Shown piece after piece: positions 60,471-62,794 of a stretch of DNA of 64,000 nt. A program made the position numbers and the translations under genes. Origin of the DNA: Chloroflexota bacterium (GTDB taxonomy: Bacteria > Chloroflexota > Limnocylindria > Limnocylindrales > CSP1-4); the NCBI GenBank assembly GCA_021786385.1, contig JAJYNJ010000097.1:18409-82408 (forward strand), given 5' to 3'. The notes under the pieces were generated by a model that did not search any database, was not told the DNA's origin, and saw only the letters and a list, made by a program, of their open reading frames with translations. The stretch's first letter is position 1. The number at the start of each line of letters is the position of its first letter.

Positions 60471-62794
60471 CGGCTGGCCTCCTGCTGCCCGCGACCGCGC
60501 GATGGCACGTGGCGAAGCGTCCCGACGACCCCGCCCTCATCGACGGGGCCGTCCGCTGGAGCTGGGCTCAGCTGGATGCACGTGCGGACCGGATCGCCGC
60601 CAGCCTCCGGGCAGCCGGCGTGGCGTCGGGTGAGCGGATCGGGCTGCTCGGTGGGACGAGCGCCGCGACCCTGGCCTTCCTGCACGGCGCGGGCCGGGCC
60701 GGGGCGGTCGTGGTCCCGCTCAGCGAGCGCCTGGCGGCGCCGGAGATCGCCGCGTTCCTCGACGACGTCGCTGTCGCCCGCGTGGTCGCCGCGGACGAGC
60801 GCCTGGCGGCAGCCCGCCGCTTCAGAACCGACGTCCTCCCCCTTGCGGAGCTGCTCGCTGATCCCGCCCCTTCCGATCCGCACTGCGCGGATCCCTTGGT
60901 CGGCCCGGAGATCGACCCGGCGTCGCCGGCGGTCATCGTCGCCACGTCCGGCACCACTGGCCGGCCCAAGGGCGCCCTCCTGACCCATGGGGGGCTCGCG
61001 GCGAGCGCCGCCGCCTGGCTCGCCGTCCTGCCCCCGGCCAGTGGCTGGCTGGCCGCCCTCTCCCTGGCCCACGTCGCGGGCCTCGGGATCGCCTGGCGTG
61101 CGGCGGCGGCCGGCGTGCCGGTCGTGGTTCCGTCCGGCACGTCCCCCGAGGATCTCCTTGAGGCGCTTGCCCTGCCCCCGGTGAGCCACGTCTCGCTCGT
61201 CGCGGTGCAGCTCGCCCGCTTCCTGGACGGCGCCGGTGCCATGCCACCGCCCCCAGGTCTCCGGGCGGTCCTCGTCGGCGGCGGACCCGTGCCGCCGAGC
61301 CTCGTGTCGCGGGCGCTCGCGGCCGGCTGGCCGGTCGTGCCTACGTACGGCATGACCGAGACCGGTTCGGGCGTGACGGCCCTGCCGACGGCGGACGCGG
61401 CTGGCCACCCCGGTTCGGCCGGGCGAGCGCTGCCCGGCCTGGAGCTGCGGATCGCCCGGCCCGGCCCGGACGGGATCGGTGAGATCGAGGTGCGCGGCCC
61501 GGTCCTCTTCGCCGGGTACGTGGGGCGGGCGGCAGAGACGGAGGCCGCGCTGACCCCTGATGGCTGGTACCGGACCGGTGACCTGGGGACGCTGGACTCG
61601 GACGGGTACCTGGCCGTCGCCGACCGCCGGCTCGACCTGATCGTCTCCGGCGGTGAGAACGTCTACCCGGCCGAGGTCGAGGCCGTCCTCGTGGGCCACC
61701 CGGCGATCGCCGACGCAGGGGTGGCCGCCCTGCCGGACCTGACGTGGGGCGCCGTCCCGATCGCGGCGGTCGTTCTGCGATCGGGCCAGTCCGTCAGCGA
61801 CCGCGAGCTACGGGCGTTCTGTCGCGCCCGGCTGGCCGGCTTCAAGGTCCCAGCCGCCTTCGTGCGGGTCGCGGCGGTGCCGCGGGCGAGCTCGGGCAAG
61901 CTCCGCCGCGATGCGCTCCGGACGATGCTGCTCGCCTGCGCTGCCGATGAGCTCGTATCAGCCGACACTCGACCGGCGCTGCCGTCGCTCCTCCACCTCC
62001 GGCGCCCCGACGGCGTGCGCCTCGCCTACCGGCGGCTGGGCGGGGCTCCGGGCGAGGGGCACCTGTCGAGCCGACCGCCGATCGCGCTCCTCCACGCCAC
62101 GCTTTCGAGCGGGACCCAGCTGGCGCGGCTGGCAGCGCTGCTCGGGCGACGAGCGACGGTGCTGCTGCCCGACCGGCGAGGGAGCGGGGCGAGCCGGATC
62201 GCGCCGCCCCGGATCGTGGCGATCTCCGAGCAGGTCGCGGATCTCTTGGCACTCCTCGATCAGGAGGGTGTCGAGCGGGCGTGCCTGGTGGGGCACAGCT
62301 TCGGGGGCGTCGTGGCCCTCGCGACCGCGGCTCTCGCGCCGGAACGCGTCGCCGCCGTCATCGCCTACGAACCGCCCTACCTCACCCTGTTGGAGGAGAT
62401 CGGGCCAGGCTTGGTCGCCGAACTCGGCGCCGGCGTCGCGGCCGCCTACGCGATGGGCGGCGCCCCGGCCGCCGCGGAGTACTTCCTGCGGACGATCAGC
62501 CCCGAATCATGGGCCGCGATGCCGGCCCACCAGCGCAGCGCCGTGGTGGCGGAGGGCGAGTCGGTGCTCGCCGATGCCGGGCTCGCCGGGATCGAATCGG
62601 TCGACCTCGACCGTATCGTCGCGCCGGTGACGCTGGCGACCGGTGGCGCCAGCGAGCCCTACTACGTCCCGATTGCCGACGCGCTCGCGGCCAGGATCCG
62701 GGGCGCCCGCCGCGTCCACCTGCCGGGGCTCCGTCACGTCGCCCCGATCACCGACCCGCACCCCGTGGCGGATCTCGTCCTGCACAACCTCTGA
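60458..62794 (+). CDS. menE: o-succinylbenzoate-CoA ligase fused to a C-terminal alpha/beta-hydrolase
   Basis: ANL motifs TSGTTGRPKG, TYGMTETGS, YRTGDLG, SGGENVYPAEVE, SGKLRR, followed without a stop by LLHA, PDRRGSG, GHSFGG, YEPP, LRHVAP. Confidence 0.9.
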   Translation: MEPLTAGLLLPATARWHVAKRPDDPALIDGAVRWSWAQLDARADRIAASLRAAGVASGERIGLLGGTSAATLAFLHGAGRAGAVVVPLSERLAAPEIAAFLDDVAVARVVAADERLAAARRFRTDVLPLAELLADPAPSDPHCADPLVGPEIDPASPAVIVATSGTTGRPKGALLTHGGLAASAAAWLAVLPPASGWLAALSLAHVAGLGIAWRAAAAGVPVVVPSGTSPEDLLEALALPPVSHVSLVAVQLARFLDGAGAMPPPPGLRAVLVGGGPVPPSLVSRALAAGWPVVPTYGMTETGSGVTALPTADAAGHPGSAGRALPGLELRIARPGPDGIGEIEVRGPVLFAGYVGRAAETEAALTPDGWYRTGDLGTLDSDGYLAVADRRLDLIVSGGENVYPAEVEAVLVGHPAIADAGVAALPDLTWGAVPIAAVVLRSGQSVSDRELRAFCRARLAGFKVPAAFVRVAAVPRASSGKLRRDALRTMLLACAADELVSADTRPALPSLLHLRRPDGVRLAYRRLGGAPGEGHLSSRPPIALLHATLSSGTQLARLAALLGRRATVLLPDRRGSGASRIAPPRIVAISEQVADLLALLDQEGVERACLVGHSFGGVVALATAALAPERVAAVIAYEPPYLTLLEEIGPGLVAELGAGVAAAYAMGGAPAAAEYFLRTISPESWAAMPAHQRSAVVAEGESVLADAGLAGIESVDLDRIVAPVTLATGGASEPYYVPIADALAARIRGARRVHLPGLRHVAPITDPHPVADLVLHNL

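Follow-up and report, generated by a model that had tools for sequence, protein, structure and literature searches.

The last gene of a menaquinone (men) operon found in a 64,000-nucleotide stretch of Chloroflexota DNA (contig JAJYNJ010000097.1, assembly GCA_021786385.1; the whole stretch, about 75% G+C, is called the window hereafter) encodes a protein made of two enzymes. MenE, the ligase loading o-succinylbenzoate (OSB) onto coenzyme A (CoA), continues in frame into an alpha/beta-hydrolase domain, here called ABH2. Judging from sequence and gene context, ABH2 is, with moderate probability, a competent serine hydrolase dedicated to menaquinone synthesis in Limnocylindria-type Chloroflexota, an uncultured group with high G+C content, and most likely the 1,4-dihydroxy-2-naphthoyl-CoA (DHNA-CoA) thioesterase (the MenI role, EC 3.1.2.28). 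Every operon product other than ABH2 has an assigned step, and the one step that lacks a gene, which is also the only hydrolytic one, is that of DHNA-CoA hydrolysis. Together with the linkage to men genes, the conserved catalytic triad and the distinctness from MenH, this favours a non-orthologous MenI as the most economical interpretation.

The operon leads from chorismate to demethylmenaquinone in all steps except DHNA-CoA hydrolysis, as stated in the original prediction, MenF, MenD, MenH, MenB, MenA, MenC and MenE having all been identified by Pfam and NCBIfam models (Table 1). Most of the genes overlap or abut their neighbours. No stop codon is found between MenE and the hydrolase, and the open reading frame (ORF) is continuous. 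Pfam places the domains AMP-binding (amino acids, aa, 15-354), AMP-binding_C (aa 406-481) and Abhydrolase_6/Abhydrolase_1 (aa ~540-772) on the 778-aa product; MenE does run in frame into a hydrolase of about 270 aa, as had been read from the sequence. The start assigned to the hydrolase, position 61920, needs correction, being one base out of frame; position 61919 is in frame, and the folded domain begins near aa 511 (nucleotide ~61988). The equivalog model TIGR01923 assigns the first module to MenE with 340.1 bits (cutoff 330.15). The module retains the catalytic A10 lysine (K481, motif SSGK), which is invariant in 62 fused homologues. The two modules are joined by a flexible linker of about 10-20 residues.

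The fusion is genuine, as originally supposed. Contigs of two different ENA samples, which are independent metagenome assemblies, encode the identical 778-aa protein, and the fusion is therefore not the product of a one-off assembly error. An assembly artefact or frameshift has been ruled out by this identity, by the finding of the fusion in about 62 species, and by the clean ATGA or GTGA overlaps seen where the two genes are split (see below).

ABH2 was modelled alone by AlphaFold2 (49 homologues) with high confidence (predicted local distance difference test, pLDDT, 91; predicted template modelling score, pTM, 0.90). The model features the canonical alpha/beta-hydrolase sheet plus a lid, and its first 15 residues are disordered, like the linker in the full-length model. 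Foldseek comparison to the PDB retrieves the canonical fold with probability 1.00 for many entries, and template modelling (TM) scores of 0.7-0.8 to esterases and enol-lactonases; the closest fold matches are 22-27% identical to ABH2. Membership in the superfamily is evident also from PF12697 (59.5 bits, cutoff 26.3) and PF00561 (54.4 bits, cutoff 25.8). The nucleophile elbow GHSFGG and the C-terminal histidine within LRHVAP, both pointed out in advance, correspond to Ser614 and His760. The triad is probably completed by Glu638, which belongs to an EPPY motif immediately following strand beta6. Glu733 (codon 62654-62656) occupies the place after beta7 where the acid usually lies, but this position hosts Glu or Asp in just 59 of the 69 homologues, whereas Glu638 is conserved in all; the choice between the two relies on this difference. 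The conserved triad and the confident fold model indicate an intact active site, maintained by selection. Arg573/Arg574 and Arg693, which are conserved too, are candidates for binding CoA.

Attempts to place ABH2 in a specific functional family failed, as NCBIfam models, PDB sequence searches and Foldseek all gave generic alpha/beta-hydrolase matches. None of the NCBIfam models came near its cutoff, and the best ones, of the PcaD type, reached 55-65 bits. With TIGR02427, the model of the PcaD 3-oxoadipate enol-lactonase, ABH2 scores 55.7 bits, against a cutoff of 255.85, and does not belong to that family. The MenH of the window outscores ABH2 on the PcaD models (95-98 bits; 95.3 with TIGR02427), and the likeness of ABH2 to PcaD, far below the cutoff, is therefore generic. 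Among PDB sequences, the best matches are to unnamed hydrolases and to epoxide hydrolases, in their N-terminal halves. PF00975 (Thioesterase) gave no match to the ABH2 of the window at E <= 0.001, which places it outside the type II/terminal thioesterases; the same domain is listed among the precomputed Pfam domains of some ABH2 homologues, and is faint in one of them (P0004, a natural split form). Being an alpha/beta-hydrolase, ABH2 has neither the hotdog fold nor a 4HBT-type domain (PF03061 or related). It lies outside the known MenI families, and only an analogous function is proposed for it.

Enol-lactonases are the top family likeness of ABH2, with the PcaD models just mentioned and with PDB entry 2xua among the top fold matches. 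They bring to mind an esterase or lactonase, not a thioesterase, which would reopen the OSB spirodilactone and hand OSB to the fused MenE, as a built-in metabolite-repair module. OSB-CoA is unstable and decays spontaneously to the spirodilactone, a dead-end product for whose recycling an esterase has been postulated (PMC6210188). With such a role, ABH2 would be fused to the enzyme acting next, MenE. We know of no enzyme identified as an OSB-spirodilactone esterase. This function is quite unlikely for ABH2, since the PcaD likeness is generic and stronger in the MenH of the window, a salvage enzyme would hardly be conserved with the strictness of a core step, and the MenI step would still be without a candidate.

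MenH, the 2-succinyl-6-hydroxy-2,4-cyclohexadiene-1-carboxylate (SHCHC) synthase, is an alpha/beta-hydrolase of like size, and the N-terminal halves of the two proteins are 35% identical over 123 residues. That ABH2 is a second SHCHC synthase, paralogous to MenH, is nonetheless highly improbable. The MenH model TIGR03695 matches only the N-terminal third of ABH2, with 32.9 bits against a cutoff of 208.55, and gives 28.6 bits with the split homologue of locus L092. In addition to the triad, the invariant active-site residues of MenH are Tyr85, Arg90, Arg124, Asp128, Trp147, Arg168 and Lys212 (PMC3630204). The check made on ABH2 covered the equivalents of Tyr85 and Arg90. The residue preceding the nucleophile is His, Val or Ile in all the 69 members, and never Tyr; that at Ser+4 is Val, Cys, Leu, Ile, Ala or Asp, and never Arg. 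By contrast, the MenH of the window carries both residues in the signature GYSFGAR, and its best PDB match, aligned over the full length, is S. aureus MenH (2xmz, E = 1.4e-34), so that the separate bona fide menH of the original prediction is indeed there. Structures described as MenH are missing among the 50 best Foldseek matches of ABH2. A duplicate of MenH has been discarded as a candidate on the grounds of the TIGR03695 score, the absent Tyr85 and Arg90 equivalents, and the genuine MenH encoded three genes upstream.

A scan of 185,579 species-representative genomes yielded the 80 best ABH2 loci, each covering about 20 kb. They come from Chloroflexota metagenome-assembled genomes labelled as Limnocylindrales/Limnocylindria, Chloroflexia, Anaerolineaceae or simply Chloroflexota, with the exception of L036, labelled 'uncultured Actinomycetes'. 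Close homologues retrieved by protein search with ABH2 number about 68, are 43-56% identical to it with E < 1e-30, and are followed by a sharp drop in score. In an exhaustive profile search about 55-60 clusters at 50% identity were collected before hits merged into generic alpha/beta-hydrolases, and about 15 of these clusters are full-length fusions of 745-802 aa. ABH2 is thus a small family, encountered here in Limnocylindria-type Chloroflexota only. The three distant relatives checked (<=34% identity) all lie outside men operons, and the association with men genes is therefore specific to the ABH2 family.

The gene order tetR-menF-D-H-B-A-C-E-ABH2 was found in every ABH2 locus with enough upstream DNA, which makes the linkage both strict and old. 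The menE-ABH2 junction is in frame in about 62 of the 80 loci. In 11 others the two genes are distinct, and the first codon of ABH2 overlaps the menE stop as ATGA or GTGA. The junction is apparently frameshifted in two loci, L069 and L076, both from long-read assemblies, and cannot be judged in the remaining five. Linkage to men genes in other genomes, on which the original prediction depended, is therefore the rule, ABH2 being located directly after menE wherever found. On a neighbour-joining tree the split forms are scattered over at least four clades, and fusion and fission have therefore recurred while adjacency was kept.

Loci were also sampled in reverse, starting from MenE. Of the 120 best MenE homologues, about 70 are fusions of 740-820 aa and about 50 are unfused; all belong to the same group. 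Unfused MenE proteins led to four new contexts with a separate ABH2 directly downstream (L092, L093, L094 and L095/L096), and several more sit on contigs already known to carry a separate ABH2. Two loci, L091 (3001-4600) and L097 (1287-2925), encode MenE proteins 62-66% identical to that of the window and keep the men operon, but have no ABH2 after menE, which ends normally in both. A separate ABH2 is present, in the same his-operon neighbourhood, in L095 and L096, the closest relatives of these two. ABH2 is thus open to loss, relocation or replacement at the locus, and is nearly, not absolutely, universal among the sampled relatives.

In most of the loci ABH2 lies inside the operon, not at its end. 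At L092 the next gene encodes the MenG/UbiE methyltransferase (TIGR01934, 192.7 bits, cutoff 158.35). menG comes right after ABH2 in 74 related loci, as the very next gene in 67, with a spacing mostly of -3 to +30 nucleotides, and in the ABH2 reading frame in seven. The operon typical of the class thus provides all enzymes of the classical route from chorismate to menaquinone, the DHNA-CoA thioesterase excepted, and a single gene without an assigned role, that of ABH2. Frames continuing from ABH2 into MenG/UbiE, of about 975-1053 aa, occur at L020 (8624-11548), L031 (1148-4204), L053, L064, L066, L075 and L076. MenE-ABH2-MenG triple fusions are credible at L020 and L031, which derive from short-read assemblies; the other five frames are from long-read assemblies, and could result from indel errors. 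The sub-clade of the window lacks menG at this place; no MenG-like sequence was detected anywhere in the window by using the L092 MenG as query, and the methyltransferase of the sub-clade must be encoded elsewhere.

A hotdog thioesterase that could fill the MenI step was looked for. The operon has no hotdog-fold gene, and none turned up in a scan of small ORFs of the window. In the ~80 loci, no recurrent small-protein family encoded up to about 10 kb away from the operon proved to be of the hotdog fold, among the 25 families listed out of 98 scanned with Pfam, though a gene present at a single locus could escape; neighbourhood genes were called by a crude finder based on third-position G+C (GC3), which initially missed menG and whose negatives are weak. 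Hotdog thioesterases are ubiquitous, and homology alone cannot assign MenI among them.

Two further functions have been weighed in the light of these distributions. ABH2 is tethered to the CoA ligase itself, and not to MenB or MenA, and is dispensable without loss of the operon, as an accessory enzyme would be. It might be a safety valve of the CoA pool, or a proofreading thioesterase, as the original prediction also envisaged, acting on stalled OSB-CoA or on acyl-CoAs made by MenE by mistake, and not on the main flux, so as to free CoA. Enzymes of this sort are known. Type II thioesterases of the alpha/beta-hydrolase fold proofread the products of adenylating enzymes in non-ribosomal peptide synthetase (NRPS) and polyketide synthase (PKS) systems, and hotdog thioesterases do so beside PaaK and benzoate-CoA ligases. 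We regard such a role as unlikely for ABH2, because its near-universal retention, tight translational coupling and place between menE and menG point to a core function, hydrolysis of OSB-CoA beside MenE would waste ATP, and the MenI step would be left without a candidate.

The lack of a specific family match, the small size of the family and its restriction here to one lineage are also consistent with some other lineage-specific role, and the absence from two relatives indicates that ABH2 is not absolutely required at the locus. ABH2 could act on another quinone-related intermediate, serve as a non-catalytic scaffold for a MenE/MenB/MenG assembly, or be a generic esterase kept in the operon for regulation. 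These options are, as a whole, rather unlikely. The invariant Ser, His and Glu residues speak against a purely structural role, and the strict placement next to menE at about 90 loci, with the fusions to MenE and MenG, speaks against a function unrelated to menaquinone.

As a DHNA-CoA thioesterase, ABH2 would work as follows. MenE would load OSB onto CoA, and the separate MenB would cyclise OSB-CoA to DHNA-CoA. Ser614, activated by His760 and Glu638, would attack the thioester, CoA would leave and an acyl-enzyme would form, from which water would free 1,4-dihydroxy-2-naphthoate (DHNA) for MenA. MenE and MenI are the entry and the exit of the CoA-bound part of the pathway, which would give sense to the choice of MenE as partner. 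With the CoA-consuming and CoA-releasing steps carried by one polypeptide through a flexible tether, their stoichiometry would be fixed, and CoA would be returned locally. The first MenI, the cyanobacterial hotdog protein Slr0204, was reportedly identified by Widhalm in 2009 through the same gene-clustering logic.

Several observations weigh against this assignment. The non-orthologous MenI put forward in the original prediction gains from the men linkage, the invariant position, the conserved triad and the distinctness from MenH, and loses from L091 and L097, the two relatives that keep the operon without ABH2. In sequence and fold ABH2 is a generic alpha/beta-hydrolase, with uncharacterised hydrolases and esterases as top structural matches. 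The characterised DHNA-CoA thioesterases named in the literature retrieved are all hotdog-fold proteins, as the prediction itself had stated. The MenE and MenI steps are not consecutive, and tethering to a CoA ligase exposes a thioesterase to futile cycling, unless OSB-CoA is excluded as its substrate. Finally, the full-length AlphaFold2 model (pTM 0.61) has confident domains but no defined MenE-ABH2 interface. A fixed interface is unsupported by this score and by the disordered linker, and tethering is therefore proposed, not a rigid channel.

Of all steps in the classical menaquinone/phylloquinone pathway, DHNA-CoA hydrolysis is the least settled, and the hotdog enzymes performing it arose more than once in evolution. 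In earlier surveys of genomes Men pathways are still found incomplete, with unfilled steps. In the literature searched we found no earlier report of an alpha/beta-hydrolase as MenI candidate, no description of a MenE-hydrolase or MenE-hydrolase-MenG fusion, and no report of menaquinone synthesis in Limnocylindria. Should the favoured function be correct, ABH2 would be the first non-hotdog MenI, a clean non-orthologous displacement, and would provide a rule by which a whole class of Chloroflexota, abundant in soil and fresh water, could be annotated. One polypeptide would hold both ends of the CoA-dependent part of the pathway and, in some species, the final methyltransferase too. If ABH2 were instead a repair or proofreading enzyme, it would represent a quality-control function not previously found in the menaquinone pathway.

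The coordinates of the operon genes and of the relevant parts of the fusion protein are given in Table 1. The genuine MenH and MenC score marginally below the cutoffs of their NCBIfam equivalog models, and automated annotation may therefore give them generic names in this lineage. Essentially all related loci with upstream DNA have, as here, a TetR-family regulator heading the operon, which it may control in response to quinone or DHNA. Divergently oriented upstream of the operon (48769-52516, minus strand) are genes for copper handling, encoding a 1024-aa CopC/CopD-containing protein and a SCO1/SenC copper chaperone. Farther upstream a six-gene block (39491-45408, minus strand), which includes a RbsD/FucU family protein, has a GC3 of 0.69-0.75, against about 0.88 elsewhere, and may be a horizontally acquired island for sugar utilisation or transport. 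ABH2 is followed in the window by the gene for ribosomal protein L25 (62844-63485, minus strand). In several relatives small PIN-domain toxin genes, with an antitoxin or helix-turn-helix partner (VapBC-like), are located shortly downstream of the men operon (L008, 11625-12418; L049, 14415-15343; L023, L035, L047 and L076).

Table 1. Genes of the men operon and features of the MenE-ABH2 protein in the window
Feature	Coordinates	Strand	Remarks
TetR-family regulator heading the operon	52751-53428	+	TetR_N Pfam match on the identical contig L001; end overlaps menF start
menF, isochorismate synthase	53425-54894	+	Pfam Chorismate_bind; TIGR00543 318 bits (cutoff 224.75); start as in the L001 gene call
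menD, 2-succinyl-5-enolpyruvyl-6-hydroxy-3-cyclohexene-1-carboxylate (SEPHCHC) synthase	54891-56717	+	TIGR00173 451 bits (cutoff 244.2)
menH, genuine SHCHC synthase	56714-57598	+	TIGR03695 203.2 bits over the full length, just under the cutoff of 208.55
menB, DHNA-CoA synthase	57599-58423	+	NF005637 455.9 bits (cutoff 380)
menA, DHNA polyprenyltransferase	58420-59352	+	NF004751 305.9 bits (cutoff 264)
menC, OSB synthase	59394-60470	+	Pfam MR_MLE_C; TIGR01927 129.6 bits (cutoff 130.55); start as in the L001 gene call
MenE-ABH2 fusion ORF, whole	60458-62794	+	GTG start; 778 aa plus stop codon
MenE module, complete	60458-61927	+	aa 1-~490; TIGR01923 spans aa 35-487
Inter-domain linker, disordered	61943-61972	+	aa 496-505; pLDDT <50 in the full-length AlphaFold2 model
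ABH2 alpha/beta-hydrolase domain	61988-62791	+	aa 511-778; four-helix lid at aa ~649-714
Nucleophile Ser614 codon (GHSFGG)	62297-62299	+	Ser in 69/69 homologues
Glu638 codon (EPPY), probable triad acid	62369-62371	+	Glu in 69/69 homologues; straight after strand beta6
Catalytic His760 codon (GLRHVAP)	62735-62737	+	His in 68/69 homologues; after the last core strand in the model

The reaction proposed for ABH2, the conversion of DHNA-CoA to DHNA and CoA between MenB and MenA, is performed by the hotdog MenI enzymes, such as E. coli MenI/YdiI, Synechocystis Slr0204, plant DHNAT1/2 and the S. aureus and Listeria proteins. The hotdog enzymes are about 140 aa long, and that of S. aureus forms a tetramer and has Asp, His, Glu and Tyr in its active site. 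ABH2 differs from them in being a 270-aa alpha/beta-hydrolase, usually fused to MenE, with a putative Ser-His-Glu triad that would imply a covalent acyl-enzyme, and no sequence or structural similarity between the two has been detected. With MenH, in turn, ABH2 shares the superfamily, a similar size, the lid architecture, a Ser-His-acid triad and the operon. MenH employs its triad as the base that eliminates pyruvate, and not to hydrolyse, and ABH2 does not have the equivalents of Tyr85 and Arg90. MenH was itself once misassigned as DHNA-CoA thioesterase.

Fusions of Men enzymes have been met elsewhere. The plant PHYLLO protein is a fusion of MenF, MenD, MenC and MenH. Comparative genomics predicts menJ in place of menI, as well as a MenY of the HAD family fused to MenI, the latter in gut bacteria (PMC4746308). 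PHYLLO and MenY-MenI are precedents for the fusion of non-consecutive Men enzymes and for non-orthologous replacement of Men functions, although their partner domains differ from those of MenE-ABH2, which comes from an uncultured class of Chloroflexota.

Among the Abhydrolase_6 esterases and hydrolases, those closest to ABH2 by sequence and fold are the uncharacterised hydrolases 3om8 and 3r0v, 3bwx, the Thermogutta esterase 4uhh, E. coli YbfF (3bf7/3bf8) and PcaD (2xua). None is linked to men genes, their physiological substrates are mostly unassigned, and the likeness to ABH2 is at the superfamily level only. YbfF has acyl-CoA thioesterase activity. An analogy in domain organization is provided by NRPS and PKS thioesterase domains and by type II thioesterases (PF00975), where an adenylate-forming enzyme is followed by a C-terminal alpha/beta-hydrolase, which cleaves a thioester linked to pantetheine. 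Unlike these systems, MenE-ABH2 has no carrier (PP-binding) domain, and free CoA would take the place of the carrier.

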